Assembly: GCA_022842645.1 (NCBI GenBank)
Contig: JALHPE010000001.1
Coordinates: forward strand, 135,711-199,710
DNA length: 64,000 bases
From: Minisyncoccota bacterium
Lineage (GTDB): Bacteria > Patescibacteriota > Minisyncoccia > Phycocordibacterales > UBA2100
Direction of reading: 5' to 3'
Within the stretch, counting starts at the first letter, position 1. Each line of letters opens with the position of its first letter. Shown one piece after another: positions 1,571 to 38,205 of the stretch. The notes under the pieces are model-generated. The model was not told the DNA's origin. It worked only from the letters and a program-made list of their open reading frames with translations, and made no database searches. Both the position numbers and the translations under genes were made by a program.

Positions 1571-1584
1571 TCATCTACAAATCT

Positions 1585-3195: not shown

Positions 3196-3218
3196 TCCTA
3201 CCATTAGACGATCCGGCA
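3145..3218 (-). tRNA. tRNA-Gln(CUG)
   Basis: Minus-strand read: UGCCGGA-UC-GUCU-AAUGGUA-GGAC-U-ACUCC-CUCUGGA-GGAGU-GUAU-CUUGG-UUCGAAU-CCAAG-UCCGGCA-G-CCA. Clean cloverleaf; anticodon loop CUCUGGA gives anticodon CUG. U1-A72 and G73 are typical of bacterial tRNA-Gln. Confidence 0.75.
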
Positions 3219-10795: not shown

Positions 10796-10796
10796 A

Positions 10797-22500: not shown

Positions 22501-25500
22501 GTTGGAGGTGGTGGAGAACGCTAAGCCGAGGGATGCGAAGTTTGTTGCTGATGTGGTGGAGAAGCTGTTCGCGAGATAGAAACTTCCTTCTTGACCATCG
22601 AAGGTGCCGGACCAGTTGCCGGTCACGTCGAGATATGAAGCAGCGAGGGATGTGGTCGCATACACACGACCTGTTGCGTCAGTTGCAAGGAGTGCGGAAG
22701 GAAGATTGGTAATACCGAGGTTTGAGGTGGTGGCGCTCGTGAAGCGCGCATTTGTTGCAAAGAGATTCGTTGAGGTAGCGTTCGTTGAGGTGGAGAAGGT
22801 CGAGGAGAGTGCGGTGATGGAAGATGATGCGTTTGCGATGAGGCCGCCGTTGAATGAAAGGAGTGTGTTTGTTGCGTTTCCTGGGAAGAGGTAGCCGAAG
22901 GTTGCGTAGTCAGTGCCTGCGACTGCGAGTGAGACATTCCCCTGTCCATCAACGCGCAGGAGTCCGTTCTGAAGACCAGAGACGACGAGGTTTGTTGTGG
23001 AAGCGTAGGTGGTGGAGAAGAGTGTTGAGGAGGCGTTGCCGAAGGTTTGGAGTGCAGTGAAGGTGTTGGCAGTGTAGGTCTTCGGAATCGTTGTTGATGA
23101 TGAGACAAAGAAGTTGGCACTGGTTGTGGAGAAGAAGTTGCGCTGCGTTTGCCAGAAGTCGTTGGAGGTGGTGGAGAACGCAAGACCGAGAGATGAGAAA
23201 TGGAGTGCAGATGTGGTTGAAAAGATTCCCTGGATACCGAGCGTCGAGGTTCCCATGAGGGTATACGCACCGAGTCCGTCGCCGACGAGTAATTGCCCGT
23301 ATGTCGGCACAGTTGTAGTGCCAGTGCCGCCGCTCGTCACGCCGAGCTCACCAGTAAAAGGACCATATTCATAGACAACGACCGTGCCCGTGCCACCGGC
23401 ACCTCCCGTTGCACCGGTATCCACGTCTTCACAAGACGCGCCGCCGCCGCCGGCACCATACGCACCTGCCGTTGCTCCAGCTGTACATACGTTTCCACCG
23501 TCTTGTCCACCACGACCGCCGCCGCCCCAGTAACTGCTACCACCAAGACCTCCAAAGACGACTTCAGCGAGACAATCGCCAATATGTCCGTCGCCACCGC
23601 TCACATTAAGATCACCGGAGCTTGCGCTACCGCCGGTGCCTGCTGTACCCCAAGAACCAGCCGCACACGCTGCATTCACGGCAGAGCCGCCGCCGCCAAC
23701 ACCACCATTTGCAATTGCAAACGTACTAAAACGCGATTGCCCACCGGTGCCACCGGTTCCTCCCGTGTTTGATCCGGCAGTTCCCGCAGAACCCACTGAA
23801 ATTTGCACCGACGTTGTTGCGACAACGTCGACGACAACGATAGAGGATGCGCCCGCGCCACCGCCGCCACCAACTGTTTCGTTCGCGACGTCTGCAGCCG
23901 GAGCATCGGCACCGCCACCGCCACCGCCACCGCCGGTCACGACCACGTGCGCAATCGTGGCCCCTGGTGAGGGTGTATATGTTGTGACCCCGGGAGTCGT
24001 AAACGTTCGGATAGCAACCAAAACACCACTTCCTTCTCCCCCTCCCCCGCCCGCACCCAAACACACACCATTTACTGCGACGCAGCCCTGTCCTATATTG
24101 ATACCATTCGCAAACGTAGAAGTTGCCGACACCGATGTGACGTTCAATACCGAAGCTTGCAGTCCTCCTGCAAACGTTGATGTACCCGCACCAAGTACCG
24201 CGAGCAGCCCCGTCGTCGTCGCGCCTCCACTAATCGTGAGTCCTCCTGCTTGCGTACCCGAGCCAATGGTTGAGGATGCGTAGATGCCAAGACCAGTTGT
24301 GGTGGCATTGTTTGGGAAGAGGTATGCAAATGTTGGAAGTCCGAGTGAGGAAGTGGCAGTGAGTGTGTAGCCACCGGATGCGTTCCCGACAAGCATCTGA
24401 CCGAAGGTTGGCGCTGCGGTGAGTCCGGTGCCGCCGTAGAGGACACCGATGGACGTCGTCGCAGACACCACACCATTGCGTGCATCAAGTGGACCATTCA
24501 GTCCGGTGAGTGTGAGTGCGTTTGAGGTGAGGCCACCCGTGAATGATTGTGCGGCAGTGAAAGTATTAGCCGTATACGTCTTCGGAATCGTTGAAGACGA
24601 GTGGACGAAGTGTTGTGCGGAAGTTGTGGAGAAGAAGTATCCCTTATCGAGAGCATTGAGGAAGGTTTGGACACGGGAGTCGGTGTAGTAGAGGTTGGCT
24701 CCTTCTGCGACGTGGGTGGTCAGGAGTCCCAGTGTGGATGTGGAGAGTTGTTGCCAGCCAGTCCCTGCGTAATTCCCTAGGAGAATACCTGCTGCGGAGA
24801 TGCTTGAAAGACCGGTGCCACCACGATTCGCTGCGAGAGTACCAGCGGTGTCAGCGAGTGCGATACCAAGTGTTGAAGTTGCAAAGTCAGTCCACGTGGA
24901 ACCGTTCCACGCAAAGAGGTCCCCATAGTTCTCCGTCATTGCCGCGACATCGTTTAACTCTTCAATGCTGTTGTTAGTGAGATCGTCTGCGGTGCGTGCG
25001 GTTTGCTGGGTTTCCCAGTAGTCGACAGAAGTCGTGCTGAAGAAATTATTCACAGATTTCCAGTAATCACTGGATGTTGTTGAGAATGTAAGACCAAGAG
25101 ACGTGAAATGTGCGGCACTTGTCGTTGAGAAGAAGTTGTTGACCGATTTCCAGTAGTCGTTTGAAGTCGTGCTGAATGCGAGGCCGAGTGATGAGAAGTA
25201 TGAGGCGCTTGAAGTTGAGAAGAAGTTTCTTTGTGTCTGCCAGTAATCTGCAGACGTTGTCGAGAAGCCTGAAAGATTTGCTTGGGATATGTAGTAATCA
25301 GTGGATGTTGTTGAGAAAAAGTTGTTCACACTTTTCCAGTAATCGTTAGAGGTAGTGGAGAACGCGAGACCTTGCGAAGAAAAGAACGAGGCGGACGTGG
25401 TGGAAAAGGTACCCGTGATGCCGAGCGACGATGTCGCGACAAGATCGTAGCCACCGATCGCATTACCCAAAAGAAGCTGACCATATGTCGGTGCTGTTGA

Positions 25501-27543
25501 AATGCCGGTGCCGCCGTTTGAGATTCCCAAAATTCCTGTCACATCACTCCCGAGATTGACAAGTGTGCTCGTAATAGCCCCACCTGTCGCACGCAGAATG
25601 CCCGTGAGATTCCCAATTGAGAGCGAACCAAAAAAACCTTGCGTTGACGAAGCATAGCTTGTAGAAATTCTCGTCGCCGATGCATTTTCGAGCGTGAGTT
25701 TGTTGGTGAGTGCGAGCGCGTATGACGATGAGGCAAGCGTGATGGCCCCAGTTGATGTCGAGAAATCCCAGTACCCCGAGATGCCGCCCTGCGAACCGCC
25801 ATATTCTTCAAGGACGATCGCCGCGTCAATGTATTTAGGAAATACTAACACTGAAATTTGTCCTGTACCCGGACCATTCCAGTTCTCGAGCGCCTGCCCC
25901 AAGGTAAAACCTGAGCCCATAAGCTTCACACCAACACCCGCCGTTGTGCTCGCCGCAATGAAATCTCCGGCGCCAATAATGCCATTCGCATCACTCACTG
26001 TTGTTTCAATCACACCCGCAAAACCAACTACGTACGCATTCGGCACACCCTCCAAGTTGGCATTTGCCACAAATGCGGGGTTATCTGAAATAACACCGAT
26101 GAGCGATTGTCCCGCAACAGCACGCTGGTATTCACCGTCTGAATTGAGCGAAACCAGGTCGCCAACACTTGCCGACGAATTGAGCACCATATATTCGGCA
26201 AAGTCTGCAGCACCCGAAGTTTGTGTGATGCCAGTCCCCGCAGTTGAGAGACGGAGAGAGCCAACGCCGCGCCCGCCCGTATCAGCATTATCAGGAACAC
26301 CCGCAAAATACTCGATGAAGCGCGGGCATGTCGTGCCCGAAGTACATGTTGTTCCAAACGCCGTTCGAAGATTGAGGCGGAGCACGTTCGTGCCGGAACT
26401 GAGCGTCGGATTTGAATTTGAAACCGCGAGCACGGCCGTGCCCGTTGCACTCGTCGCCGCAGTTGTCGAACCAAGAATAGAAAATTGATATGAGGATGTA
26501 TCGAGTCCTACACGAAACGGACCCGCAAACGACGATGTTGCCGTTGAAGTGGCAATGATGTTACCCGTGAGAAAACGTCCTTGCGCGGTTGTTGAGGCAA
26601 GGTTTGCGCTTGTCGTTGCGGTTATGTCCCCAAAGAGTCCTGAGAGCGATGCGAGCGTAGAAGCAAAAAGGCTGGTGGTTGTTGCGTTGGTCGTGGTTGC
26701 ATTCGTTCCAATGATATTGGTGGCGGTGAGATTGGTGATCGTCGCCACAGCAGCAACAAGAGAATTGACAATTATGTTCGTGAAGCGTCCAAGTGTTGAA
26801 AAAAGCGTTGTCGATGTTGCATGTGTTGTTGTTGCTGCAGCAGCTGTCACTCCACCAGCGAGTGTCAAATTACCCTGCGCAGTAATTTTGTTTGCCGCAC
26901 TGAAAAATTGGATGTCCCCTGTTGCCTGCCCCCCACCCTGGAGCGTGAGGGCGTTTGTGGTCGTTGCGTTAATAAAAGGATTTGTGCCGCCAAGAATGAG
27001 ATTGCCGGACGCAAGAACTGGAATTTGATTCCCACTTGCATACTGTGCCGCCGAAAAACCACCGACCATTGAAGCATTAATGGCATAGCCCGAGGCGAGA
27101 ATGCGCTGACGTGGTGAGAATGTTTCGAACGATTCCGCGCCGTCCCCCGGAGCACAGGTCGCACCTACTTTCGTTGCTACTTCAACATTTAAATATGCGG
27201 CGTCGGTATCCTGAAAATTAAAATCGAGCACGTCGCCCCCGATATTCGTGTCGCCAATACCCACCGTGAACACACCGTTACGAACCGGCGCGGTCATCGT
27301 TGAGGGAGCGGAAGCAGGCCACAGTTTTGTACCAGAACCAACTGTGGGAACGTCATAGAAAGAAAACTTGAAACAATACTCGGTGCCCGTGCCTCCAAGA
27401 AGCGTCCCCCCACTCGAAAGAAGACGTCCCTGGTAATTGAGCATCCGCGGCACCCCAGGCGCCGCAAATACGGGAAGCACAGGAATTAGCACTCCAAGAA
27501 GGCAGAGGACGCCTACCCAATAACGCACGCATTTATTCAACAT
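19552..27543 (-). CDS. giant (about 2660 aa) secreted repeat-rich surface protein; start uncertain
   Basis: Single ORF. Signal peptide. Many GGTG-containing ~35-aa repeats. ~20-aa FSTTSxDYWxxxxNFF repeats. Two Gly-rich blocks each ending VVxYEY. C-terminal ~340-aa domain starting ADLAENYPV and an acidic Pro-rich tail. Confidence 0.8.
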   Translation of the reverse strand: MLNKCVRYWVGVLCLLGVLIPVLPVFAAPGVPRMLNYQGRLLSSGGTLLGGTGTEYCFKFSFYDVPTVGSGTKLWPASAPSTMTAPVRNGVFTVGIGDTNIGGDVLDFNFQDTDAAYLNVEVATKVGATCAPGDGAESFETFSPRQRILASGYAINASMVGGFSAAQYASGNQIPVLASGNLILGGTNPFINATTTNALTLQGGGQATGDIQFFSAANKITAQGNLTLAGGVTAAAATTTHATSTTLFSTLGRFTNIIVNSLVAAVATITNLTATNIIGTNATTTNATTTSLFASTLASLSGLFGDITATTSANLASTTAQGRFLTGNIIATSTATSSFAGPFRVGLDTSSYQFSILGSTTAATSATGTAVLAVSNSNPTLSSGTNVLRLNLRTAFGTTCTSGTTCPRFIEYFAGVPDNADTGGRGVGSLRLSTAGTGITQTSGAADFAEYMVLNSSASVGDLVSLNSDGEYQRAVAGQSLIGVISDNPAFVANANLEGVPNAYVVGFAGVIETTVSDANGIIGAGDFIAASTTAGVGVKLMGSGFTLGQALENWNGPGTGQISVLVFPKYIDAAIVLEEYGGSQGGISGYWDFSTSTGAITLASSSYALALTNKLTLENASATRISTSYASSTQGFFGSLSIGNLTGILRATGGAITSTLVNLGSDVTGILGISNGGTGISTAPTYGQLLLGNAIGGYDLVATSSLGITGTFSTTSASFFSSQGLAFSTTSNDYWKSVNNFFSTTSTDYYISQANLSGFSTTSADYWQTQRNFFSTSSASYFSSLGLAFSTTSNDYWKSVNNFFSTTSAAHFTSLGLTFSTTSSDYWKSVNNFFSTTSVDYWETQQTARTADDLTNNSIEELNDVAAMTENYGDLFAWNGSTWTDFATSTLGIALADTAGTLAANRGGTGLSSISAAGILLGNYAGTGWQQLSTSTLGLLTTHVAEGANLYYTDSRVQTFLNALDKGYFFSTTSAQHFVHSSSTIPKTYTANTFTAAQSFTGGLTSNALTLTGLNGPLDARNGVVSATTSIGVLYGGTGLTAAPTFGQMLVGNASGGYTLTATSSLGLPTFAYLFPNNATTTGLGIYASSTIGSGTQAGGLTISGGATTTGLLAVLGAGTSTFAGGLQASVLNVTSVSATSTFANGINIGQGCVAVNGVCLGAGGGGGEGSGVLVAIRTFTTPGVTTYTPSPGATIAHVVVTGGGGGGGGADAPAADVANETVGGGGGAGASSIVVVDVVATTSVQISVGSAGTAGSNTGGTGGTGGQSRFSTFAIANGGVGGGGSAVNAACAAGSWGTAGTGGSASSGDLNVSGGDGHIGDCLAEVVFGGLGGSSYWGGGGRGGQDGGNVCTAGATAGAYGAGGGGASCEDVDTGATGGAGGTGTVVVYEYGPFTGELGVTSGGTGTTTVPTYGQLLVGDGLGAYTLMGTSTLGIQGIFSTTSALHFSSLGLAFSTTSNDFWQTQRNFFSTTSANFFVSSSTTIPKTYTANTFTALQTFGNASSTLFSTTYASTTNLVVSGLQNGLLRVDGQGNVSLAVAGTDYATFGYLFPGNATNTLLSFNGGLIANASSSITALSSTFSTSTNATSTNLFATNARFTSATTSNLGITNLPSALLATDATGRVYATTSLAASYLDVTGNWSGTFDGQEGSFYLANSFSTTSATNFASLGLAFSTTSNDYWQTQRNFFSTTSANFFVSSSTTIPKTYTANTFTALQTFGNASTTNISASYASSTQGFFGSLSVGNLTGILRATAGAISATLVDLASDVNGILQVANGGTGWGNIQSGTLLTGNGTGALATTTIGSSLQLSGGTLALNTGNANTWTARQNFALASSSALSAGRAYFGETATTTIDTAGNVVVAGALNVTGNTTLSAATTTNLLVTASSTFQDFTSRNATSSLLFTNAFRGAGLLGCDTSGDKLLWNSLTGQFSCGVDAGASGSGISSLGAPGQPQTGATQTFASSSDANIGITITSAGNAHTFAMNWLGMLGVSRGGTGWGNIQSGTLLTGNGTGALATTTVGSSLQLASATLGLNLANANIWSGLQRFGGGASTTALSANDFVAVGRTATTTIRGETNATSTFAGGIEGRALNITTGTSTFANGINITGGCFSVNGACITDTVVKLTAVNTFTTSQAYTKPNGMSYIVVEVWGGGGGGGDGDGTGDGTGGGGSGGYAMEQFTVSELAGTTTPFIQIGAAGTVTASASGGAGGTSAFAGSATSTGGGGGVRANGADGAGGAGGIGSGGDLNMNGDSGGYGDTAIGIGGAGGDAPRGGVGGAGGVGAGAAGAAGACGGGGGGSNGTGTVGGVGCVVIYEYTTVTSGADLAENYPVTDPSIGPGDIVAFDTSSPLVVTRALEEVKRPLVGIVATAPGIVLGEKDQVGQRPVALAGRIPTKVNLEGGVIEVGDRIALSSEAGVGRKANVFDDTVGIALSAYDGTQEEATVMLFVDLQRGIEIDALGLALLGDMEGLRVIATSTEQFDFVDGVMHAISVRLQNAFGIASTEFATSSASSTDGVATSIATSTASTTPRTGEQSFIASILTHIAEWFASATNGIGAIFVDTVKAKNEICIDDQCLTKEDVRSLLEITDVPEYETLSEEDMTGPIEEIVPPPSAGENPPIGGEASSETPEAPSVSASPSADIPPTPESEVPEASPPTE

Positions 27544-27934
27544 AGCCCCTGTTCTGCACTTCTTGCAGATTGCGCGCACTGATACGATTGTCGAGGCTCA
27601 CCGCAAATACATACGCAAGCAATAGAATCACGACTACGAGGAGCACAACACATGTCCAGGCAACCCACGTATAGAGATTCACCAGCGACTCTGGGGTCGT
27701 GAGTACTTTTTTAAGCCGATCACTATATGATGGCTCTTCGGCTTTTTTGTCTTTGTTTTGCTGGTAGGCCTCAAGCGCCTCACGCGTCGTCATCCACGCA
27801 ACGTTTGAGTAGACCTGTTTGCCTTCCAATTTTCCTGCACGAATAAGCTGACCGATATAGTCGGCGCTGTAGCCTGTAATTTGCGCGGCCTCTTTGAGGT
27901 TTATGTATTCGTCCTGCTTCCCCATAGAACTCAT
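27533..27934 (-). CDS. membrane-anchored helix-turn-helix DNA-binding protein
   Basis: INLKEAAQITGYSADYIGQLIRAGKLEG is an HTH (MerR/excisionase-like). C-terminal TM VAWTCVVLLVVVILLLAYVFAV. 3' end overlaps the giant gene start by ~11 nt. Confidence 0.5.
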   Translation of the reverse strand: MSSMGKQDEYINLKEAAQITGYSADYIGQLIRAGKLEGKQVYSNVAWMTTREALEAYQQNKDKKAEEPSYSDRLKKVLTTPESLVNLYTWVAWTCVVLLVVVILLLAYVFAVSLDNRISARNLQEVQNRGYVE

Positions 27935-28082: not shown

Positions 28083-28844
28083 ATGCCAAAGCTCGCGTAC
28101 GCTAGAGATATGTCCGGCCTTGCAGCAAAAACTCTTGTTCTTGGCGGTATTATCTTTGCAATCATTATTGTTGGCTTCTTGGAGGCCCGAAAAGGGGCTG
28201 AGCTTGATGAGTTGGTTAGAGACACTCTCCGACAGCTCGGTATGAATCGCACCTATGGAATGCGAGCAGAGACTCGTGTGGATATTGGCGATCGTATACT
28301 TTCGATTGACGGCACCTATCGCATAGATACCCCGGCAAAATCGTATTCCTCAAACTCGCGCACAACCCTAACGGTTAAAAATACCGGCGAAACACATTCA
28401 TTTACCCTCCAAAACATCTCTCTTGGTGAAAAAGTCTATGTATCAGTCTCGACTGACAGTCCACTCCTCAGACAGACACTGCCTCTCACGGAAGGGTGGC
28501 GCTCGTTTGACAGTAGGGCGATACCAGAGGAGTTCGTAGGCATTGCCGTCTATGGCCCAATTCTTGATAACACGCGCATCTTTGCGGATGAGGGTGCTCA
28601 TCTTACCTTTCTCGAAAAGAAGGTAGAGGATAGCGGCGAACAGTACGTTTTTAAGCTTAGCAATCCTCGCGACGAGATAGGGGGCACACTTCAAACACTG
28701 TTTGAGCGTATTGGCTCGGAGGGGCGTGTGTTTGTATGGCTTCGTGAAGGAAGGGTCTCTCACTTCGTCTTTACTGGCAAAGACTACGTCTCAACCACAA
28801 CGCTCATGGGGGGAGAGCTTGACCCCATCACTCCCCCACTTTGA
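28083..28844 (+). CDS. hypothetical N-terminally anchored extracytoplasmic protein
   Basis: TM LVLGGIIFAIIIVGFL then soluble domain. 253 aa. Overlaps the next gene by 4 nt. Confidence 0.4.
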   Translation: MPKLAYARDMSGLAAKTLVLGGIIFAIIIVGFLEARKGAELDELVRDTLRQLGMNRTYGMRAETRVDIGDRILSIDGTYRIDTPAKSYSSNSRTTLTVKNTGETHSFTLQNISLGEKVYVSVSTDSPLLRQTLPLTEGWRSFDSRAIPEEFVGIAVYGPILDNTRIFADEGAHLTFLEKKVEDSGEQYVFKLSNPRDEIGGTLQTLFERIGSEGRVFVWLREGRVSHFVFTGKDYVSTTTLMGGELDPITPPL

Positions 28845-29602
28845 TGTGTACAGCCAAGACCGAGACGCTCGCCACGAAGTACACTAAGGCTATGCAGGCA
28901 TTTCTTCGTCGCCATGCCCACAAAATCCTGATTGGACATGGAACTGCAATCGCACTCCTTACCACAAGCATGATGATGGGCGTGCCTAAAGCTATTATGT
29001 ATCTCGCACCCACACCTGAACAAATGCGGGTGGGAGAAAATGCCACGCTCTCCATTAATCTCAATGCCCAAGTGCCGGTGAACGCTATTGGCACAACACT
29101 CGTAATCCCACCTGAGATGGAAGTAATTGCCATCAGCAAGGAAGGATCTTTCTTGGACCTTTGGACTGAGGAAACGGTGTTGCGTGAAGCGGTGGGTGAA
29201 CTGCGGTTTAGTGGAGGATCACTCGCGCGCGGAGGACTCACCGGAGTGCATACAGCGCTTACACTAACTGTCCGCGCCAAAACACCCGGCGAAGCAGTCT
29301 TCTCATTCAAAGATACTGAGGTGCGGGCCCATGATGGAACGGGAGAGCGTATCACAACCGAGCTTCGCACCCTCTCCATTACAATCGTTCCGGAAACTCC
29401 CAAAGAAGAAGTCGGAGTAGAGACACAAAGAGCGGCGCCACATGCTGATTTTGACGGAAAAAATGGCGTCACTATCGCCGATATGTCTATTCTCATGATG
29501 AAGCTCTTTGGCCCTTACGATGCATACTTCGATCTAAACCGCGACGGCCTGCTTTCGCTCGCCGATCTCTCGGTTTTCTTTAGCGCGATGCAAGATCGGT
29601 AG
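28841..29602 (+). CDS. secreted protein with cohesin-like beta-sandwich domain and C-terminal dockerin-like segment
   Basis: Signal/TM. ATLSINLNAQVPVNAIGTTLVIPPEMEVIAISKEGSFLDLW...GELRFSGG resembles cohesin modules. C-terminal FDGKNGVTIADMSILMM...DLNRDGLLSLADLSVFF dockerin-like repeats. Confidence 0.45.
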   Translation: MMCTAKTETLATKYTKAMQAFLRRHAHKILIGHGTAIALLTTSMMMGVPKAIMYLAPTPEQMRVGENATLSINLNAQVPVNAIGTTLVIPPEMEVIAISKEGSFLDLWTEETVLREAVGELRFSGGSLARGGLTGVHTALTLTVRAKTPGEAVFSFKDTEVRAHDGTGERITTELRTLSITIVPETPKEEVGVETQRAAPHADFDGKNGVTIADMSILMMKLFGPYDAYFDLNRDGLLSLADLSVFFSAMQDR

Positions 29603-29605
29603 TGC

Positions 29606-30580
29606 TTATTTCTCACGAATGCGGCCGTATTTTGCTTTTTCGATCGCATGGATGTGGTAGAGGTAGCCCGCACCCAAACCACCGAGGACGAGAAGAAAGA
29701 GTATAGGGAGAATCGTCCCCACCACGTCTGCACCAACGGCGGCAACAGACGCAAATCCTTCCGAACGCACCGTTATTGTGAGCCGTGCGGCTTCCGACAT
29801 CTTGCCATTCTGATTCTCAGTCATGGCTCGAAGACGATAGACACCGGGACGTGCGCCCATGTTGGAGACAAACATAAATGCGCCGTCCCCATCCGTGGTA
29901 AGCGCCGTTGTTTCAGCCTCATCCCCTTCTCCAAAGAGGAATACTATCTTCGTGTTCGGCGCAGCAACTCCTGTTACTACAATTCGCTCTCCCACAGGCA
30001 CAAAACCCGGATGCGGATCAAAAATAGGTGCGGGAGGTGCCTCCTCGATATATGCTTCATAGCCTTCTTCTGTCGATGTTGCGTCACTCAGTTCAGGAAC
30101 CGCCCCTTCCTCGCGCGGCTGAACTGTGTAGAGCCCTGAGCGCATGCTGGTGATTATGTTTGAACCTTTACCATCAGCGGCGAGAATGGCACCCGCGGCA
30201 AGATAGGCATTACTGGGGCGCGAGCGGAGTGCCTTGAACTCCACGGTGACGAGAAGTCCTCGCGAACCGCGGTACGGTACTTTTGTCCACCCCGCAAAAC
30301 GCAGTGTTCCTGTCTGATTTGAAAATGTCGGCTGCGTTGGCCATGCATCGAGAATAGAACCATCAGTCGAAACTTTTTGTATCTCAATTGCGTCGGGATT
30401 AAATGTGAGCTCCGCCTCAGCAGCATTTACCTCTGCGTCATCGGTATCAGCATACACACGTATTTCAAAAATCTCACCGATCGTATAGGCTCCCGTTTCT
30501 GGCTCAACAAAGAGCGCTGCCTCTGCGGCAAAAACCCCGCTCGGAACAAGGAGAACCAGCGCGAGGAAAACACGCATCAT
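29606..30580 (-). CDS. membrane-anchored cohesin-like scaffold protein (cohesin-like + Ig-like + C-terminal TM)
   Basis: Signal peptide. FEIRVYADTDD...VNAAEAELTFNPDAIEIQKVSTDGSILDAW...GTLRFAGW cohesin-like pattern. C-terminal TM TILPILFLLVLGGLGAGYLY. Confidence 0.5.
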   Translation of the reverse strand: MMRVFLALVLLVPSGVFAAEAALFVEPETGAYTIGEIFEIRVYADTDDAEVNAAEAELTFNPDAIEIQKVSTDGSILDAWPTQPTFSNQTGTLRFAGWTKVPYRGSRGLLVTVEFKALRSRPSNAYLAAGAILAADGKGSNIITSMRSGLYTVQPREEGAVPELSDATSTEEGYEAYIEEAPPAPIFDPHPGFVPVGERIVVTGVAAPNTKIVFLFGEGDEAETTALTTDGDGAFMFVSNMGARPGVYRLRAMTENQNGKMSEAARLTITVRSEGFASVAAVGADVVGTILPILFLLVLGGLGAGYLYHIHAIEKAKYGRIREK

Positions 30581-31491
30581 GCGCCTGATGCAGGATCTGT
30601 TGGCTTTTCCCTGGGTCGCAGGTACAGCCGCGAGAATGCGATGAGCACAACGAGTATGACGCCGAAAATGATGAATGAAAGATCGATCGACGCCTGTGAT
30701 TCCGGTGCGGCCTCCGCGTCATACTCTCCCAAGCGCTCGTTTCCTGCCTTGTCTATGGCACGGACACGAATATCGTCGAGCGATTTAAAACGAAGGGCGT
30801 GGGGGCTCGTAACCGTACGCCAGGCTCCTCGCTCATAGAGCTCGAAGTGATCAAGCCCACTCTGCTTATCGGTTGTCGAAAATACGAGAAAATAGCGGCC
30901 GCTAAAGATCCCGCGCGTTGAGTGAGCCTCGACCGTAAATGCTTCTGGTGGAATAGTATCTTCCTGTACCTCCTGAATCCATTCGTTTGCCGAAAGTTGT
31001 GGCTCACGAAGGAGTGTAAACGACGCAACGCTTCGTTCCGGCACTATCTCAGTCCCCAGACCATCATGTGCATAGAGACGTGCGTTGTTACTTATGAGCA
31101 CGTCAGCATTCTCGCTTGTGCCAACAACTGTGAATGCAATTCTGCCGAGAATATTGCTCAGCGACGGGTCGCCCTGAACGCGTCCGCAATACCCACCGGG
31201 AATGCCACCCGCAAATGAGACGATACCGCGCTCGTAATCGAGTACGGGCTCGCGCACCCACAAGGAGAGTATTGATGAGCCTTTACTGAAATCAACGGCG
31301 CGCATGCTTTCTTTGGGGTATACAATCTCGATGTCAGCAGCATTTATACACGCATCGTCAGTGAGAACCCGCACTTCTGCAATAAACGTATCTCCCACTC
31401 CATATGTCCCATCCCCCGGCGTGAGATAGACACTTGCGGCATGTGCAAAAATGGGGGAAGCAAAGAGTGCGAGTGCAAGAATGGCGCGCAT
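30577..31491 (-). CDS. membrane-anchored cohesin-like scaffold protein, paralog
   Basis: Signal peptide. FIAEVRVLTDDACINAADIEIVYPKESMRAVDFSKGSSILSLW...GIVSFAGG. C-terminal TM FIIFGVILVVLIAF. Confidence 0.5.
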   Translation of the reverse strand: MRAILALALFASPIFAHAASVYLTPGDGTYGVGDTFIAEVRVLTDDACINAADIEIVYPKESMRAVDFSKGSSILSLWVREPVLDYERGIVSFAGGIPGGYCGRVQGDPSLSNILGRIAFTVVGTSENADVLISNNARLYAHDGLGTEIVPERSVASFTLLREPQLSANEWIQEVQEDTIPPEAFTVEAHSTRGIFSGRYFLVFSTTDKQSGLDHFELYERGAWRTVTSPHALRFKSLDDIRVRAIDKAGNERLGEYDAEAAPESQASIDLSFIIFGVILVVLIAFSRLYLRPREKPTDPASGA

Positions 31492-31505
31492 ACCTATAGT
31501 ATATA

Positions 31506-32666
31506 TTAGCCCGTCCAGTTAAAGAGCATGATACTAAAATCTCCGAGATTTACGGTGCCGTCTTTGTTGAAGTCATAGCGCGCGTCGGTCTTCCCCCACG
31601 AGATGAGAAAGATCGAGAAATCGACGAGATTGACTTTGCCGTCATCGTTAACATCAGCTGAGCCGGTGCCTCCAGGAGAACCTGCGCCCACAAAAAACCC
31701 CACAGAGCGACCGTACCCGCTCGAAGCTTCGATCGAAAGTTCAAAAAGCGCCTTTGCAGTGTTCATCCCTTCAGAGAGCGATCCGGTGTCTACTTGCAGT
31801 ACCCACAGTCCTGCCTGGTCGCTCTCTGCAGAGAACGATGTCTTCTTCCCGGCAAACACATCCGCGAACACCTTCACATCGGGCACTGTCTGTCCCTGGA
31901 GCGTCAAAAAATCTCCTCGTGGTATTTCAACCGCACTCGCAGAGATGGTCGGCGGAATGAGTATATTTGCGATGGTAGTCACCGCGCTCTGGACGACCTC
32001 AAATACAAACGCGGTAGTAAGTGAGTCGACACCACGACTATCTTTTGCAGAAAAGCCAAACGTCGTAATACCGGGGGTCACCTGATTGGTTGTGTAGATA
32101 AAATTTGCTTTGGAATCAGCGCGGGTGGTTCCAAATTCTTTGCCATCAACCAACACGCGCACATCAGCGTTTGGGTATGCTTTCCCGCGCATCACCACTT
32201 TTGTTTCGTTTGCAGACGGAATGGTTCCTGGTTGCCCCCCAGGAAGATTCGGGATAGAGCCGACGGTTGGCGAGCCCGGGTTTGACGGCGGCACTGCGGT
32301 TTCCGACTGGCACGTCGCCGAACAAAGGTCGCCGTTGGTATGATTACCATCGTCACACTGCTCAGAGAAACGCACTTGGAGTATGTTATCGCCGCAGTAA
32401 GGACCGAAGCTTACACAATCAGCCGCACACACACGCAGCGTAGTCGAGGAGCCGTACGTACCCAGGTTATTCCCTGCCCCAAGATCACAGACCTCTTCGG
32501 TGCTCACAACTCCATCGCCACAAATGGTGATGATAGCGCTAGTTTGAAGATCAATTGCAGCGGCTTGTGGAAGAAATATGAGGTACGCTTCAAGTAGGAG
32601 CACGCCGATACCCATTGCGGTGAGGAGCCCTATCCACACACGCTCAAACAGACTACCAGCGAACAT
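31506..32666 (-). CDS. secreted Cys-rich/Ig-like protein with C-terminal dockerin-like module
   Basis: C-terminus DVNDDGKVNLVDFSIFLISW...DFNKDGTVNLGDFSIMLFNWTG is nearly identical in pattern to the dockerin-like terminus of the 10797..12458 protein. Confidence 0.6.
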   Translation of the reverse strand: MFAGSLFERVWIGLLTAMGIGVLLLEAYLIFLPQAAAIDLQTSAIITICGDGVVSTEEVCDLGAGNNLGTYGSSTTLRVCAADCVSFGPYCGDNILQVRFSEQCDDGNHTNGDLCSATCQSETAVPPSNPGSPTVGSIPNLPGGQPGTIPSANETKVVMRGKAYPNADVRVLVDGKEFGTTRADSKANFIYTTNQVTPGITTFGFSAKDSRGVDSLTTAFVFEVVQSAVTTIANILIPPTISASAVEIPRGDFLTLQGQTVPDVKVFADVFAGKKTSFSAESDQAGLWVLQVDTGSLSEGMNTAKALFELSIEASSGYGRSVGFFVGAGSPGGTGSADVNDDGKVNLVDFSIFLISWGKTDARYDFNKDGTVNLGDFSIMLFNWTG

Positions 32667-33630
32667 GCGGGCGAGAAGTGCGACGACGCGCGAGAATGAC
32701 GGCAAGAGAGAGCACGATAAGAAGTGGGATACCAACAAAACCAGCAACTTTTAGTTTATCGGCATTTGAAAGTCCTCCGAAACCGTACCCCTCATATCCA
32801 GGAACACTTCCTATGGTTGAGATGCTCACGTCGAGCACGTCCTGTTGCGCAACCTCTTCACCTTTTTGAATAGTGTATTTTGCCTTATAACGTCCTGCTG
32901 GGAGACGTGTCGGGAGTTCCGCAAGCACCTCCTGAATTGCAAACGGTGGAATTGACTCAATCGTATTCGTATTCTCGGTAGTTTCGAGCAGTGTTTCCAT
33001 ATCGGCATCGTATATCTCGAACCGCACCCCAGTTGGTCCATAGTCGGTATTCCCTGTATTTTCGATCGTCATGAGAAAGCGAATCTTGCCAGGAAAGAAC
33101 AGTCCCCACTTCCAGCGACCTTCTTCGAGATCAGAGAGTCGAATCTTTCTCACTGAGAAATCGTAAATCTTATCAACAACTTCAATATCAACGTCGATCT
33201 GGGCACCGAGCGCAATTGACACACCGCTTCCCTGAGGACCTGCCGCAGCCGAAGATGTTCGCACCCGAATGGTTCCTTCGTGTGTTTTGTATTCGGCATC
33301 TTCGGGAACCTGCACGCGTACGATAATAGGAATTTGAGTTGTGCCTTTCGGTAAGATAAATGTATTTCCACGATCAACAGAAAACCACGATTCGATGCCG
33401 GGAATATTCATGGTGATCTCCGCAGTGAGGTCTTCTGAGGGGTCGGAGCGTACGAGCGTTATTTTTTGTTCAAAGACAGTCCCGCGCGTGAGACGTTGAT
33501 TATTCACATACGGAGGTGTGATACCAAACCCCGCATGTGCAAGTGGCGCACATACAAAAAACACAATGAGTGTCACGAGCGAAAAGCGCATAGAAAAAAA
33601 GCGCCTGTGTTTCGCGGCCATAGAGCGCAT
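32653..33630 (-). CDS. CscA-like cell-surface protein (DUF916/DUF3324-like architecture), paralog 4
   Basis: Signal peptide. Two beta-rich domains with conserved GRYKAKYTI...G motif. C-terminal TM FVGIPLLIVLSLAVIL + RRRTSR. Confidence 0.5.
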   Translation of the reverse strand: MRSMAAKHRRFFSMRFSLVTLIVFFVCAPLAHAGFGITPPYVNNQRLTRGTVFEQKITLVRSDPSEDLTAEITMNIPGIESWFSVDRGNTFILPKGTTQIPIIVRVQVPEDAEYKTHEGTIRVRTSSAAAGPQGSGVSIALGAQIDVDIEVVDKIYDFSVRKIRLSDLEEGRWKWGLFFPGKIRFLMTIENTGNTDYGPTGVRFEIYDADMETLLETTENTNTIESIPPFAIQEVLAELPTRLPAGRYKAKYTIQKGEEVAQQDVLDVSISTIGSVPGYEGYGFGGLSNADKLKVAGFVGIPLLIVLSLAVILARRRTSRPHVRW

Positions 33631-33717
33631 TTTAGCACCTACTAACGCTATGTCTTGCCTCTGTACCCACGAACCGGGAGAGAGAGAAAAGTGACCCATG
33701 AACCCCAGGAAAACGCT

Positions 33718-35592
33718 TTACCAGAAGGAACTATTACTCTTCTTTGCTGTTATTGTGTTTTGCCCGAGATAGCTACCCGCTTGCGTAATCGCGCTTGGAA
33801 TGTTGATGCCCCAGTAGGTATCCCGTTCTTGCGGGGAGCTTGTGGCGGTTGTCTTCGGAACGCGTATCAAGAGTTCAGCCGGAGTCGTAGAGCCGGTGAG
33901 TGTAAATGCGGTAGTGGACGCATAGCCGACTGAGGAAGTTGCGAATTTTTGGTTAGAGACCGGAATATCGTTTGCGGGATTAATGCCGTTGGTATCACAC
34001 GAGTCTGGTGCACTCCATATCGTACACATCGTGTCGCCATAGAGGTCTTGGTCGAGGCCAATGTTTCCGAGTGCAATAAGATCAGTTGTGGTTGCGAGAG
34101 GATCGTTCTGCTGACCCGGCTCGAGCCCGCCGTACCCAATCGCAGTTTCTGTCACGTTAAATGCGAGGAAACTGGTCATTTCATTTCCTGTTGAACCCTC
34201 GGTGAGTCCACTTGAGAAACCGTCATCGTCGAGAATACTGACCGAGGTGAGCCAGTTTTCCGCTGTCCAAGGCGTTGCGGTATCGGTTGGGTCTGCGACG
34301 TACCAAAGCGGGAATGTGCATGTCCATGTGGATGTGGTATCCGACGTCCCACTACACGAGGCGCCATCCTGGGTGCAGGAAACAAAAGGACTGAAATTCG
34401 GCGACGAGGATGCATAGCAGTTGTTAGGATTATATTCGCCAGAAGAATCACAGCCTGCTTGTGTGATACCTGAGCGATAGACGTTGATGGTTGCCGTCGC
34501 GATCTCATTCCCCACCGTTGCCTGACAGCTATTGTTGTCAGTTGCGGTAAAGCGTACACGAAAAGGTCCGGTTGTTGCACTCGGCGTGACGAGCGTTAAG
34601 TTACCCGAGCCATCAGTGTCTTCAAGACTGACGGTCGCAGCACTCACACTTGGCGCGACATTGTTCACGGTAAACGATGAATTGAAACCTTGGAATGTCG
34701 ATGTTGCACTGTGACCATGATTATCGATCACGAACACAAATGCCGAATACAGAGCGTCCTGTGTTGGAATCACAATAGTGGTGGTCGTTGCGGGGTTAGA
34801 CGACGCAAGCGTCGAGGTTGCCCAGGCGCCACCGGTACAGGTTCCGTTACTGAAACCGCTCGTGCGGCACACGATGAGTTGCACAGTGTCAGCAACACCA
34901 GCAACATCAGTATCTGATGCCGTAGAGTTCCATGTCATCGTATCCCCCGGATCGACTGGACCATCGTTTGATATCGCGGTGAAAATAGGAGGGTGGTTTA
35001 CAACAAAGGGCGAGGAGGTTGTGCCACTACCTTGCCTAAACGCCAGGTTGCAGCGCGGAAGCGGGTTATTACCATCGCATACCCATGCGAACCAATCATT
35101 AAGCTCGTTTTGAAATGGGAAGGTTTCTCTGGTGGTTGTTGCAGCGGTTGCTTGTAAGCCACTGCCCGTAGAAGCTGAAACCGCCCACTGATTGGCAACA
35201 CCACCATTGCAGGTCGGCGCCGCACTGATGTTTGCAGTGGGTGTGCCACTTGTTTTACAAATGAGGAGGTAGTAGTTGTCGCCGCTTGAGTCCGTTGCCG
35301 TTCCAATCCAAGAAACAACACTTCCCGAATTGGTGGGAGTTGTTGTGGAAGATCCAATGTTTTCTTGCGCATCCACTGTCCATGTTGGCGCGGTGTTGAG
35401 CACCGTAACTGATGTGGTCACGTCGTCTGCGCGTGCGTTTGGTACATTCGCATCAAAGAGGAGCGTAAACAAAAGTGCCGAGATAACCGCAAGGATCAAA
35501 GCACCACTTTTGCCTTCACCCCCCTGGAGTGCGCTCTGACATAAACGAAGAAGCCCGAACTGATACGGCATACTATGCACTGATGGTAGCAC
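33718..35592 (-). CDS. secreted T/S-rich surface protein with C-terminal WxL-like motif
   Basis: Signal-anchor. C-terminus YWGINIPSAITQAGSYLGQNTITA is shared with the giant protein terminus YWGINVPSGTAATLHAGTNTFIATSD. Confidence 0.55.
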   Translation of the reverse strand: MLPSVHSMPYQFGLLRLCQSALQGGEGKSGALILAVISALLFTLLFDANVPNARADDVTTSVTVLNTAPTWTVDAQENIGSSTTTPTNSGSVVSWIGTATDSSGDNYYLLICKTSGTPTANISAAPTCNGGVANQWAVSASTGSGLQATAATTTRETFPFQNELNDWFAWVCDGNNPLPRCNLAFRQGSGTTSSPFVVNHPPIFTAISNDGPVDPGDTMTWNSTASDTDVAGVADTVQLIVCRTSGFSNGTCTGGAWATSTLASSNPATTTTIVIPTQDALYSAFVFVIDNHGHSATSTFQGFNSSFTVNNVAPSVSAATVSLEDTDGSGNLTLVTPSATTGPFRVRFTATDNNSCQATVGNEIATATINVYRSGITQAGCDSSGEYNPNNCYASSSPNFSPFVSCTQDGASCSGTSDTTSTWTCTFPLWYVADPTDTATPWTAENWLTSVSILDDDGFSSGLTEGSTGNEMTSFLAFNVTETAIGYGGLEPGQQNDPLATTTDLIALGNIGLDQDLYGDTMCTIWSAPDSCDTNGINPANDIPVSNQKFATSSVGYASTTAFTLTGSTTPAELLIRVPKTTATSSPQERDTYWGINIPSAITQAGSYLGQNTITAKKSNSSFW

Positions 35593-35644
35593 TCAGGAAA
35601 ATTGTAATTTTCCTTGTATGTGGATAACAAACCGCGCGTAGTTG

Positions 35645-36853
35645 CTATTTGTAGCGAATCGCGTCGAGTGGGTTAATTTTTGCGGCGCGACGCGCAGGGA
35701 AAAGTCCGGTGATAAGCCCGACGACACCCGAAAAAGTCGCGATGAATGCGAGAAATGGAAGTGGATATTTGAAAATCCCAACCGCTTCCCCACCGAACTT
35801 ACTCGCCGCAACACTCAGGAGTCCATTCGCAAACCACCCAATACCGACGCCGATCATGATTCCCACAATGCCCCCGAGAAGACCAACAATAACCGCTTCC
35901 GCAACGAAGAGTACGACGATGTCACGCGACGAAGCGCCAATCGTGCGCATAATGCCGATTTCCGCCGTGCGCTCGAGGAGGGTGACCGTCATTGTATTGA
36001 ACATACCAATCGCAGAAACAGTGAGTGCGATTCCACCAAAGACTGCCAAGACTGCCTGAATACCTTGGAAGATTTTGTTTGCCTGTTCGACAGTTTTTGA
36101 AAGCGCCGTCACCACAAATCCCTGTGCGATAATTTCATCTTGCACTGGAACCAGTGACTCACTATCAATCACGCGCACTTGCACGCGCTCGTACTCAGGA
36201 ATCTGGAAGCGCGACGAAAACTCATCGAGCGTCATGATCGCCACGAGCGATGATGCGTCATCGGTTACTCCTTTAATAGTGTACGGAGTCTCAATCGCGA
36301 CTTCGGTAAAATCTTCAGTCCCCTCGTTCGGCACTAAAACGCGGAATGTGACTTGGCGACCAAGTGCTTCTGCCGGGTTTTCAACGCCGAAGAGTTTGAG
36401 CATCGCAGAAGAAACAATCACGCTTCGCTTGTCTTCCTCGGCAGTCGCGTCGGTAAACAGATCCCCTTCAAGCGCCTTGCCGCCAGTGTAGAGAAAATAG
36501 GATGGCTTCACGCCCTGGAGGAATGCATTCCCTGTGAGCCCCTCGTACGTTGCAAGCGTCGGAAAACTCGCCATGGGCGACACATCTTTCACGAGCTCGT
36601 TTGCTGCAAATGCATCGACAGTTTCTTGATCCAAGACTACCGCCTTCGAAGGCGGATTTGCAACGTTGAGAGAAAGGAGTGTTTCTCCGAAAACGATGCG
36701 TTCGAGAATGATACTCTGGAGCCCGAAGCCGAGGCCCACAAGCGCAACGACCGCCCCCGTTCCCACACCCATGCCCAAAATAGTGAGCCACGTACGCGAC
36801 GGGTTCGTCTTGAACATACGCGTTGAGAGCATTGCGATGTCTTGAATTCTCAT
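35645..36853 (-). CDS. ABC transporter permease, MacB/FtsX-like (4 TM + large extracytoplasmic domain)
   Basis: N-terminal TM, ~220-aa periplasmic domain, three C-terminal TMs with the FtsX-type motif. 402 aa. Confidence 0.8.
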   Translation of the reverse strand: MRIQDIAMLSTRMFKTNPSRTWLTILGMGVGTGAVVALVGLGFGLQSIILERIVFGETLLSLNVANPPSKAVVLDQETVDAFAANELVKDVSPMASFPTLATYEGLTGNAFLQGVKPSYFLYTGGKALEGDLFTDATAEEDKRSVIVSSAMLKLFGVENPAEALGRQVTFRVLVPNEGTEDFTEVAIETPYTIKGVTDDASSLVAIMTLDEFSSRFQIPEYERVQVRVIDSESLVPVQDEIIAQGFVVTALSKTVEQANKIFQGIQAVLAVFGGIALTVSAIGMFNTMTVTLLERTAEIGIMRTIGASSRDIVVLFVAEAVIVGLLGGIVGIMIGVGIGWFANGLLSVAASKFGGEAVGIFKYPLPFLAFIATFSGVVGLITGLFPARRAAKINPLDAIRYK

Positions 36854-36858
36854 GGTGG

Positions 36859-38205
36859 TTATGAATGCGCTCCGAGAAGTTCGTTCGCGCGGATGATGTA
36901 GCCGCCTTGAGCAATCAGTTTCTCTAAATGTCGCGCTATTTTCCCTGCCGCATCTTCGTCGTAGGCAGCGCCTCCAAGATGCTCGGGAAGCGCAAGTTTT
37001 TCTTCAAACTCTGCAGCGTTCGTGATACCTCCCACGCGATCGGCGACCGCATCGCGGAGTATTCCGATCTGCACAGCGGTTGAGGTAATGCCGATCTCTT
37101 CTTTGATGTAGTAGAGGAGGTGGTCGATGAATTTTCTTTGGTGGAGAAAGAGGTTGTCTGAATGCACTTCCGCGCGAAACTTTTGGACGTCCTGCGAATA
37201 GTGCACGAGGGCAAAGACACGATTCATAACCCCCGTCGCCTCATCCATGTGCATTCCCACGCCGCCCGCATGCACGCTCTTCATCAGAAATTCCATGAGG
37301 AGGTTTTCGTCCATGGTGCCGGCCAAGACCTGTAAGACCGCCTTCTCAAGCCGCTCGAGTTGCGTGAAGCCGATTGTTTGCGTCGCAAAATTCACAATGC
37401 TTTTTACCTTGAGCTCCATCGGTTCCGCATACGGATACAGACGTGCGAGCTGTTCGATTTCCGTCACAATGGTTTCCCCCGGCTTTGTGCGCTTCACTTG
37501 TGGCTTTTCAGGGTTCACCACAATGCGGCGTAATTCCCCATCGCGCATATAGAAGACGCGGTGCGCATACGGAAGATATTTTGCGTCGTGCGTGACGAGA
37601 ATTACCGTCTTTCTGTCTTTTTCGTTAATTTCTTCAAATGAATCCATAACGTGCTCGGCGGAGATAGAGTCGAGGTTACCAACAGGCTCGTCGGCAAGGA
37701 GAATCTCCGGATCGTTAATCAAGGAGCGCGCCACCGCAACACGCTGCTGCTGACCGCCCGACATCATGACGGGTGTTTTGTTCTCAAGGCGCTCAGGGAT
37801 ACCAAAACGACGCAGGAGTTCTTGCCCTCGTGCGTTCCGCTCCTGCACGCCCTTGTTAAGGAAGATCATCGGGAGCGCCACGTTGTCCAAGACGCTAATC
37901 GAAGTGATGAGGTTAAATTGCTGATAGACGATGCCGATCACGGCTTGTTGATAGCGATTCATTTCCGCCGGTGTGTAGGCATAAATATCTTCACCCTTAA
38001 CATAGAGGTGCCCGGTGTCGGGGACGTTACCGCCGAGAATGGTATAGAGGAGTGTGGATTTACCACACCCCGAAGGACCAAAGAGGATGATGTATTCGCG
38101 CGGATAGATCTCGACGTTAATATTTTTAAGCGCATTAAATTCGTTTGACTTCCCCTTGTTATAGGTAATCACGAGATTTTCTGCCTGAATCGCTGCTTTT
38201 GCCAT
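36859..38205 (-). CDS. ABC transporter ATP-binding protein (MacB/LolD-type) with ~220-aa C-terminal extension of unknown function
   Basis: Walker A GPSGCGKST, signature MSGGQQQR, Walker B LLADEPVGNLD, H-loop VTHD. The extension has no recognisable motif. Confidence 0.85.
   Translation of the reverse strand: MAKAAIQAENLVITYNKGKSNEFNALKNINVEIYPREYIILFGPSGCGKSTLLYTILGGNVPDTGHLYVKGEDIYAYTPAEMNRYQQAVIGIVYQQFNLITSISVLDNVALPMIFLNKGVQERNARGQELLRRFGIPERLENKTPVMMSGGQQQRVAVARSLINDPEILLADEPVGNLDSISAEHVMDSFEEINEKDRKTVILVTHDAKYLPYAHRVFYMRDGELRRIVVNPEKPQVKRTKPGETIVTEIEQLARLYPYAEPMELKVKSIVNFATQTIGFTQLERLEKAVLQVLAGTMDENLLMEFLMKSVHAGGVGMHMDEATGVMNRVFALVHYSQDVQKFRAEVHSDNLFLHQRKFIDHLLYYIKEEIGITSTAVQIGILRDAVADRVGGITNAAEFEEKLALPEHLGGAAYDEDAAGKIARHLEKLIAQGGYIIRANELLGAHS

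Follow-up and report, generated by a model that had tools for sequence, protein, structure and literature searches.

A candidate non-cellulosomal cohesin-dockerin surface assembly in a Minisyncoccota bacterium of the Candidate Phyla Radiation

Cohesin-dockerin systems outside the cellulosome are already an established category, at least in the terms in which Peer et al. (2009) are cited in PMC8542988. The pairs found in Clostridium perfringens glycoside hydrolase toxins (2ozn/2jnk, 2jh2, 2vo8, 2w1n) work outside any cellulosome and join secreted enzymes, and the non-cellulolytic archaeon Archaeoglobus fulgidus has a cohesin (2xdh) in a system with no assigned function. In Clostridium (Acetivibrio) thermocellum, OlpA and OlpC (3ul4, 4dh2) each present one type I-like cohesin on a cell-bound protein, which takes one dockerin protein directly. 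Both are held by S-layer-homology (SLH) domains on the Gram-positive wall, and their clients are enzymes. The adaptor scaffoldins (ScaA/ScaB) of Acetivibrio cellulolyticus and Ruminococcus flavefaciens (3l8q, 5m2o) combine several cohesins and a dockerin in one chain, an arrangement that permits layered assembly, and they organise glycoside hydrolases. Here we describe a cassette of cohesin and dockerin genes in a 64-kb stretch of DNA (the window) from a small-genome bacterium of the class Minisyncoccia, phylum Minisyncoccota (Candidate Phyla Radiation (CPR)/Patescibacteria). We propose that it probably encodes a non-cellulosomal cohesin-dockerin surface assembly, in which secreted proteins would be held by their dockerins on cohesins anchored in the membrane. 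No description of a cohesin-dockerin cassette in CPR bacteria was found in the searchable literature.

The centre of the cassette, at 28.0-32.7 kb, consists of five genes: three on the minus strand, encoding Doc386 (31506-32666), CohA304 (30577-31491) and CohB323 (29606-30577), and two on the plus strand that converge on them, encoding p253 (28083-28844) and CohDoc252 (28844-29602). Public gene calls on the identical contig give products of 386, 304, 323, 253 and 252 amino acids (aa), respectively; because the CohDoc252 product is among them, its open reading frame (ORF) is a real gene, and the minus-strand ORF that overlaps it is not. The public starts fall on ATG codons at 28844 (CohDoc252), 30577 (CohB323, the second Met of its ORF) and 32666 (Doc386), and the ORF extents used in our Pfam scans were 28841-29602(+), 29606-30580(-), 31506-32747(-) and 59847-61370(-). 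The CohA304 stop overlaps the CohB323 start (gcATGATGcgt), and the p253 stop overlaps the CohDoc252 start. At 29600-29608 the stop codons of the convergent CohDoc252 and CohB323 genes stand only 3 nt apart, which leaves no room for an intergenic terminator; a promoter and terminator scan of 27.4-40.9 kb gave counts not above shuffled expectation and no terminator-like site above chance. Close homologues are already named at NCBI 'MAG: cohesin domain-containing protein [Minisyncoccia bacterium]', MAG standing for metagenome-assembled genome. The preliminary description of this DNA had reported four cohesin-like and three dockerin-like modules, and all seven are present, with small corrections to gene starts.

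The four cohesin modules belong to CohDoc252 (aa 51-184; 28994-29395, +, delimited by the family hidden Markov model (HMM) envelope and by fold match), CohB323 (30113-30517, -), CohA304 (31003-31434, -) and a more distant gene, CohD507 (59847-61289, -; module at 60816-61217). Aligned with one another they share invariant VNA, S..(G)S...W, G.l.F.G and A.DG.G motifs, and pairwise BLASTP among them gives E-values of 6e-22 to 5e-7. The module of CohDoc252 is the most divergent, with 25-30% identity to the others, whereas A, B and D are nearer each other. Pfam Cohesin (PF00963) scores above its gathering threshold of 24.1 bits in CohB323 (26.8) and CohD507 (31.9). The CohA304 and CohDoc252 sequences themselves have no Pfam cohesin match; at E<=0.01, PF00963 finds 5 of 42 CohA304 orthologues and 10 of the 33 orthologues found for CohDoc252, and hhalign joins these two family alignments with a probability of 99.5% (E 3.3e-22). 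We also searched every six-frame ORF of 60 aa or more in the window, 489 in all, with HMMs derived from the CohDoc252 family. They recover exactly four cohesins (E 8e-60 to 4e-15) and exactly three dockerins (E 7e-30 to 1e-12), with no further module of either kind even at E <= 10.

Whether the two modules that Pfam misses are cohesins is a question of fold, and AlphaFold2 models of CohDoc252 and CohA304, built on the family alignments, bear on it for these two proteins (pLDDT, the predicted local distance difference test score, 87.4 and 85.5). Foldseek against the PDB returns cohesins as 36 of the top 37 matches for the CohDoc252 model, including all of the first 17, with E-values down to 4e-9 and target TM-scores (template-modelling scores) up to 0.78; among them are 4dh2 (OlpC, the best), 6kgf, 2jh2 (C. 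perfringens) and 2xdh (A. fulgidus, 0.78). The first 20 matches of the CohA304 model are likewise all cohesins, led by 2vo8 of C. perfringens (target TM-score 0.80); 3ul4 and 4dh2 both match this model too, and the adaptor scaffoldin entries 3l8q and 5m2o are also among the fold matches of the modelled cohesins. As modelled, then, these two of the N-terminal beta-sandwiches pointed out in the preliminary description adopt the cohesin fold, of nine-stranded jelly-roll type. One could still object that the likeness goes no further than fold and motif: the sandwiches would be stalk or adhesin domains of a generic kind, and the Asp/Asn-Gly repeats would stabilise their proteins by binding calcium, without any cohesin to pair with. 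Pfam scores lie just 3-11 bits above the cut-off, with two modules below it, and a non-cohesin adhesin domain (CLIPPER, 9ifr) does occur among the fold matches, at rank 18 for CohDoc252 and rank 31 for CohA304. That it ranks behind unbroken runs of cohesins in both lists is one of several observations that make this objection very improbable in our estimation; the others come from the dockerins and from the gene linkage described below.

The three dockerins stand at the C-termini of Doc386, Doc553 (10797-12458, -) and CohDoc252. Two score above the gathering threshold of 22.9 bits for Pfam Dockerin_1 (PF00404), Doc386 with 26.1 bits and Doc553 with 33.6; with the two cohesins above, this makes four modules over the curated cut-offs of the two Pfam families by which the assignment was to be checked. 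The CohDoc252 tail alone (aa 196-252; 29429-29599) stays below the threshold, with only an EF-hand_1 match at E 0.046. Dockerin_1 matches 20 of the 33 CohDoc252 orthologues, and the family profile finds dockerins in 23 of its 27 matches among PDB sequences, the best being C. perfringens 2jnk (2ozn; 5.4e-5) and others being cellulosomal dockerins, including 2y3n_B and 4fl4_A. Two classes of dockerin can be told apart in the window. Class I, comprising Doc386 (31512-31670) and Doc553 (10803-10964), is compact, about 49 residues long and placed at the extreme C-terminus, and consists of two near-identical halves: the consensus D.N.DGKVNL.DFSIFL..W is followed after 6-7 residues by DFN.DG.VNL.DFSIMLFNWTG. 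Class II is the CohDoc252 family, with the consensus DFNGDG.V.L.D.SIL......PY..RYDL..DG...L.DLSI.F.

The residues expected to hold calcium are largely in place. Five of the six loops in the window are canonical, with 12 residues and ligands at positions 1, 3, 5, 9 and 12; the Doc386 loops read DVNDDGKVNLVD and DFNKDGTVNLGD, and the second loop of CohDoc252 (29531-29566) reads DLNRDGLLSLAD. The duplicated calcium-binding repeats that the preliminary description ascribed to three proteins are therefore retained in all but one loop, the first of CohDoc252 (29447-29482, DFDGKNGVTIAD), which is degenerate in this genome and has Lys at ligand position 5. A census of 50 class I dockerins in related loci finds D1, D12, F13 and S14 without exception in each of the two repeats, and N3, D5 and N9 are kept in 49, 50 and 49 of the first repeats and in 47, 39 and 27 of the second. 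The Asp/Asn-Gly repeats retain the ligand positions D1-N3-D5-N9-D12 followed by a helix, and in the CohDoc252 model helices 211-221 and 239-250 stand directly after the two loops. Because 21 invariant columns of the Doc386 orthologue alignment fall within the last 49 residues, the dockerin is the most constrained part of that protein, which argues against a role of these repeats as mere calcium-binding stabilisers.

By hydropathy, CohA304, CohB323 and CohD507 each begin with a signal-like segment and have a single hydrophobic helix at the C-terminal end, so that the anchor first noticed in the two minus-strand cohesin proteins of the cluster is found in the fourth cohesin protein as well. Between cohesin and membrane helix lies an Ig-like (immunoglobulin-like) or OmpL47-type beta domain. 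CohB323 has a signal peptide, its cohesin, an Ig-like domain (aa 205-274 of the family profile match filamin/Ig-like domains in the PDB) and a membrane helix at 29669-29725; CohA304 has a signal peptide, its cohesin, a second beta domain with a weak OmpL47-type barrel match and a membrane helix at 30622-30690 (residues 272-290 of the AlphaFold2 model); and CohD507, which sits 49 nt upstream of a gene for a 6336-aa giant protein, has a signal peptide, its cohesin, a Gly-rich linker, beta domains, a membrane helix and a cytoplasmic tail of about 90 aa. All four cohesin proteins contain one cohesin each. The membrane-anchored "scaffolds" of the preliminary description are thus indeed anchored by a C-terminal helix, but with single cohesins they are anchoring proteins rather than scaffoldins. 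CohDoc252 is small and exported, and consists of an N-terminal helix of weak hydrophobicity (6-43 in the model), a beta-sandwich at 50-182, a linker of about 20-28 residues and the class II dockerin; its orthologues have a longer, clearer hydrophobic stretch at the N-terminus than does this clade.

The other two dockerin proteins appear to be secreted cargo. Doc386 has a signal peptide, Cys-rich repeats (Pfam DUF4215 2.2e-9, TIGR02232 3.5e-14) that also match the Cys-rich region of pappalysin, two Ig-like domains and the class I dockerin. In Doc553 the signal peptide is followed by about 300 aa that match no family, by two Ig-like domains above the Pfam cut-off (Big_13 31.8 bits, Big_6 30.9 bits) and by the class I dockerin; its Ig-Ig-dockerin region is 37% identical to that of Doc386. 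Directly downstream of Doc553, a gene at 10283-10837(-) encodes a membrane-anchored thioredoxin-like protein (Redoxin/AhpC-TSA), a neighbour kept in three related loci (L045, L051 and L052); because Doc386 carries at least 8 invariant Cys and the CohA304 family 2, both in its cohesin, it may be an extracytoplasmic disulfide helper.

This inventory is not that of a cellulosome. We detected no multi-cohesin scaffoldin, no enzyme-borne dockerin and, in the ORFs scanned, no carbohydrate-binding module (CBM) and no glycoside hydrolase domain, the last as the preliminary description had noted. The Pfam scans gave no SLH match, and no search for a sortase signal (LPXTG) was made; attachment appears to be by the C-terminal hydrophobic helices. 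Besides the dockerins, Pfam recognises only DUF4215, Big_6 and Big_13 on the dockerin proteins. The cargo, once described as rich in Ig and Fn3 domains, is accordingly Ig-like and Cys-rich, and the Fn3-rich protein of the window (38318-39739) has no dockerin. Dockerins were also sought on the giant proteins of 2675 and 6336 aa and on p617, p414, p435, Fn3_473 and p253; with neither an HMM match nor a calcium-loop motif, these are not dockerin cargo.

How the modules relate to one another is best approached through the gene order in relatives. Sixteen species-level loci, all in CPR MAGs, were found with the CohB323 family apart from the window itself. They are labelled Minisyncoccia, Candidatus Paceibacterota, Adlerbacteria or, in third-party annotation (TPA) assemblies, 'uncultured Candidatus Saccharibacteria'; among L002-L016, loci of one and the same gene order carry these conflicting labels, of which the TPA ones probably do no more than hold a rough place. 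Twelve of the 16 loci share a gene order with the window: in these the order Doc386 > CohA > CohB < CohDoc is kept in the same orientation; of the remaining four, one is cut at a contig end and three are without the convergent CohDoc gene. The order, that of the wider block described below included, holds while cohesin identities drop to 28-40%. When metagenomes were scanned with the Doc386 alignment, 36 more dockerin-type loci came to light, along with 44 that have only the Cys-rich repeat and served as controls. Genomes and metagenomes together supply 37 dockerin-only genes followed by a sufficient length of sequence, and for 35 of these a same-strand cohesin gene lies no more than 3 kb downstream; the two exceptions are of the window's own Doc553 > thioredoxin-like arrangement. 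The 44 controls (323 kb) contain neither a cohesin nor a dockerin module.

Two further arrangements repeat the association. A paralogous one, p414 > DUF11-like > Doc553 > Hsp20 > CohD507 > giant, occurs in L044 and L046-L049, so that Doc553 and CohD507 are neighbours in other genomes; in another (L017), a dockerin gene is followed by three CohD-like cohesin genes. The linked loci are mostly orthologous, and the 35 of 37 therefore shows persistence over deep divergence and in three arrangements rather than 37 independent events. Adjacency in three arrangements, together with the fusion of both modules in one protein, is the pattern expected of partners made together, and it weighs as well against a likeness of fold only. 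The fused architecture is itself widespread: at E<=1e-30, CohDoc252 has 174 clusters (50% identity), of which most are 220-275 aa long and match over both modules.

The same linkage bears on the possibility that true cohesins and dockerins are present without being each other's partners, and that the dockerin proteins, the exposed cohesins or both act as direct adhesins on glycans or proteins of a host or prey. A life in attachment to host cells is generally assumed for CPR bacteria, the cargo has adhesin-like Ig and Cys-rich domains, and the window holds more classes of cohesin than of dockerin. There is also a precedent from a transposon study of the saccharibacterium Southlakia epibionticum, in which SEML1_0315, a dockerin-domain protein, was essential, and host glycans were proposed as the target of dockerin-domain proteins (PMC10633639). 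Against this stand the repeated adjacency of dockerin and cohesin genes, their fusion and the want of a CBM in the ORFs scanned, and we consider direct adhesion by unpaired modules unlikely.

We therefore favor an assembly in which the modules bind one another, and the following scheme sets out how it would operate. All of the module-bearing proteins would be exported. CohA304, CohB323 and CohD507 would be retained in the membrane by their single C-terminal helix, each displaying one cohesin outside the cell. Doc386, with its Cys-rich repeats and two Ig domains, and Doc553, with its unassigned domain and two Ig domains, would be released from the cell, and their C-terminal dockerins would bind calcium and plug non-covalently into the membrane cohesins. 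The outcome would be non-enzymatic, adhesin-like proteins held on the cell surface, possibly for attachment to a host. CohDoc252 could act as an adaptor that docks on an anchor and offers a further socket, or it could link to copies of itself. From gene position, the pairs Doc386-CohA304, Doc553-CohD507 and CohDoc252 dockerin-CohB323 suggest themselves as the likeliest.

The place of CohDoc252 in this scheme could be a different one. Its class II dockerin might bind its own cohesin, giving a closed form in cis or head-to-tail chains or a lattice in trans, with the membrane cohesins all serving class I dockerins. The divergence of its cohesin from A, B and D, the separate class of its dockerin and the coupling of a class I dockerin gene to three CohD-like genes in L017 would all fit such self-binding, and the linker would permit it in cis. 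On the other hand, to our knowledge the dockerin in characterised cellulosome adaptor scaffoldins does not bind the cohesins of its own chain; CohDoc252 adjoins CohB323 in most loci; and the pTM (predicted TM-score) of its AlphaFold2 model is only 0.60, with no evidence of a fixed cis arrangement. We regard this arrangement as a minor possibility and retain the scheme given above.

Several observations weigh against the assembly as proposed. Four cohesin classes face only two dockerin classes in the window, so that some cohesins would share a partner or have one not seen here, and the data cover 64 kb of genome. The first calcium loop of CohDoc252 is degenerate and its N-terminal export signal is weakly hydrophobic; Doc553 and CohD507 lie 47 kb apart; and most of the 37 linked loci, being orthologous, are not independent events. 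Rate covariation with Doc386 (n=20) gives partial rho values of 0.90 for CohA304, 0.84 for the neighbouring protein TM348 and 0.81 for CohB323, values so close that they do not discriminate among candidate partners. Even so, the reading of the preliminary description, a cohesin-dockerin assembly outside a cellulosome context, is supported by the modules themselves, by the anchoring, by the lack of glycoside hydrolases, by the adjacency of dockerin and cohesin genes and by the fused mini-protein, and on this sequence-level evidence we hold it to be the probable one.

The cluster extends well beyond the cohesin and dockerin genes. The wider conserved block reads Fn3 protein > ABC ATPase > MacB/FtsX permease > p617 > TM348 > Doc386 > CohA > CohB < CohDoc252 < p253 and continues past p253 with HTH133 > giant 2675-aa protein. 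Its upstream part (32653-38205, -), identified by Pfam matches and by an order seen in related genomes and metagenomes, comprises the ABC ATPase of a MacB-type transporter (36859-38205, 448 aa), the MacB/FtsX permease (35645-36853), the 617-aa secreted protein p617 (33718-35571) and TM348, a 348-aa protein with a signal and a membrane helix (32653-33699). On the other side, p253 is N-terminally anchored, has no assigned fold and is translationally coupled to CohDoc252, which it adjoins in 10 of the 16 genome loci; a PDB sequence search with it gave only a weak match to a designed propeller, and the same search with p617 found nothing.

It is tempting to regard the whole of 10.8-61.4 kb, roughly 50 kb, as one conserved non-enzymatic, cellulosome-style surface attachment apparatus of Paceibacteria-type CPR, that is, as their host-attachment device. 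In such an organelle, host-binding proteins rich in Ig domains and in Cys would be fastened by their dockerins to CohA, CohB and CohD, and the small protein with both modules would polymerise or bridge the tethered proteins into a lattice. The same structure would take in the MacB-type ABC machine, the membrane proteins that resemble DUF916 and both giant fibre proteins. We consider so inclusive an apparatus doubtful, and confine our proposal to the cohesin-dockerin assembly.

The flanking genes have features of their own. The MacB-type ABC ATPase (36859-38205) has about 220 extra C-terminal residues without a confident family match. The C-terminal part of p617, about 250 aa (33718-34480), is homologous to the C-terminus of the 6336-aa giant (40788-41450; 35% identity, E 1e-24), and this common terminal domain possibly acts as a signal for anchoring or export, in connection with the neighbouring MacB-type transporter. 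Four paralogues of 350-415 aa (12900-13949, 15368-16618, 16615-17775 and 32653-33699, all on the minus strand) share a layout of signal peptide and C-terminal membrane helix, and a dockerin gene always has one of the four ahead of it. In the first, DUF11 scores above its cut-off (28.3 vs 24.6 bits) and WxLIP_PGBD (DUF916) just below. The four are reminiscent of the CscA/DUF916 proteins of Firmicute WxL loci, and a WxL/Csc locus was considered for the flanking genes; WxLIP_PGBD reaches 25.1 bits in 12900-13949, below the cut-off of 27.3, and no WxL domain is matched in p414, p435, p617 or the giant C-terminus, even at E<=10, so this identification was set aside.

The 2675-aa surface protein (19552-27579, -) has two Gly_rich_2 domains and repeated 'FFSTTS..YW' motifs, and weakly matches the Peptidase_G2 intramolecular-chaperone cleavage domain. 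The gene for a 133-aa protein (27533-27934, -) with HTH_17 and a membrane helix always comes before its own, and the pair is kept in related genomes. The 6336-aa giant gene (40788-59798, -) contains DUF2341 and Ig_Rha78A_N and starts 49 nt after CohD507; the order Hsp20 > CohD507 > giant (59847-61818 with 40788-59798, -) is kept in L044 and L046-L048, though the giant is without a dockerin. At the window's edge, 7-3218 holds an AAA_25 ATPase fragment, a 174-aa ORF and a large serine recombinase (1585-3195), and ends at a tRNA-Gln (3145-3218); with a G+C fraction of 0.43-0.47 against about 0.52 in the rest of the window, this segment looks like the edge of an integrated mobile element. What remains is ordinary chromosome, including CTP synthase, FtsEX, RF2, signal peptidase, Hsp20 and tRNAs. 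A phage origin for the cassette was rejected: the alignments of Doc386 and CohA304, when used to scan viral contigs, brought up no relatives, and the one match was to the Cys-rich repeat alone.

Importantly, the way in which CPR/Patescibacteria build their surface and hold on to a host is largely obscure, and most of their envelope proteins are unannotated. The cassette offers a concrete wiring diagram of which secreted proteins would sit on which membrane anchors. The binding of cohesins to dockerins is calcium-dependent, is reversed by EDTA (ethylenediaminetetraacetic acid) and is easily assayed in vitro; a calcium dependence of the same kind would be expected here. Recognition of the CohA family, which numbers about 900 clusters (905 at E<=1e-3) and is almost invisible to Pfam (a precomputed cohesin match in only 1 of the top 120), and of the cohesin-dockerin mini-protein with its 174 clusters would annotate a common part of CPR genomes. 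Dockerins of about 50 residues with single cohesins could also serve as new orthogonal affinity pairs; if the modules do not bind each other, the result is an annotation update only. To specialists in cohesins and dockerins the finding will be no surprise, and its value is as a useful handle on CPR surface biology. It also suggests a partner within the same cell for dockerin proteins of other CPR bacteria, where host glycans were proposed (PMC10633639).

How, then, does the cassette compare with the systems with which we began? SEML1_0315 is, like Doc386 and Doc553, a dockerin-bearing envelope protein of a CPR bacterium; it comes from a different CPR class, and no cohesin partner for it is mentioned in the study, in which the word cohesin is absent (PMC10633639). 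The adaptor scaffoldins share with CohDoc252 the union of cohesin and dockerin in one chain, but they are multi-cohesin organisers of glycoside hydrolases, whereas CohDoc252 has 252 aa and one cohesin. The A. fulgidus system, in which one protein likewise has both a cohesin and a dockerin, is archaeal and lies outside any conserved surface-protein gene island. The C. perfringens modules serve enzymes, which are absent here, and the cohesins of the cassette are held in the membrane. OlpA and OlpC provide the same direct attachment to a single cell-bound cohesin, but the anchor here is a C-terminal membrane helix and the clients are without a recognisable catalytic domain. With four cohesins and three dockerins in a CPR region that has no glycoside hydrolases, the cassette falls in the non-cellulosomal category. 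Structurally it stands closest to the C. perfringens and A. fulgidus modules and to OlpA and OlpC with their single cohesins. What sets it apart from them is that membrane helices anchor it, that its cargo is non-enzymatic, that its dockerins are compact and terminal, and that its genes lie in a surface-protein island conserved in CPR bacteria.

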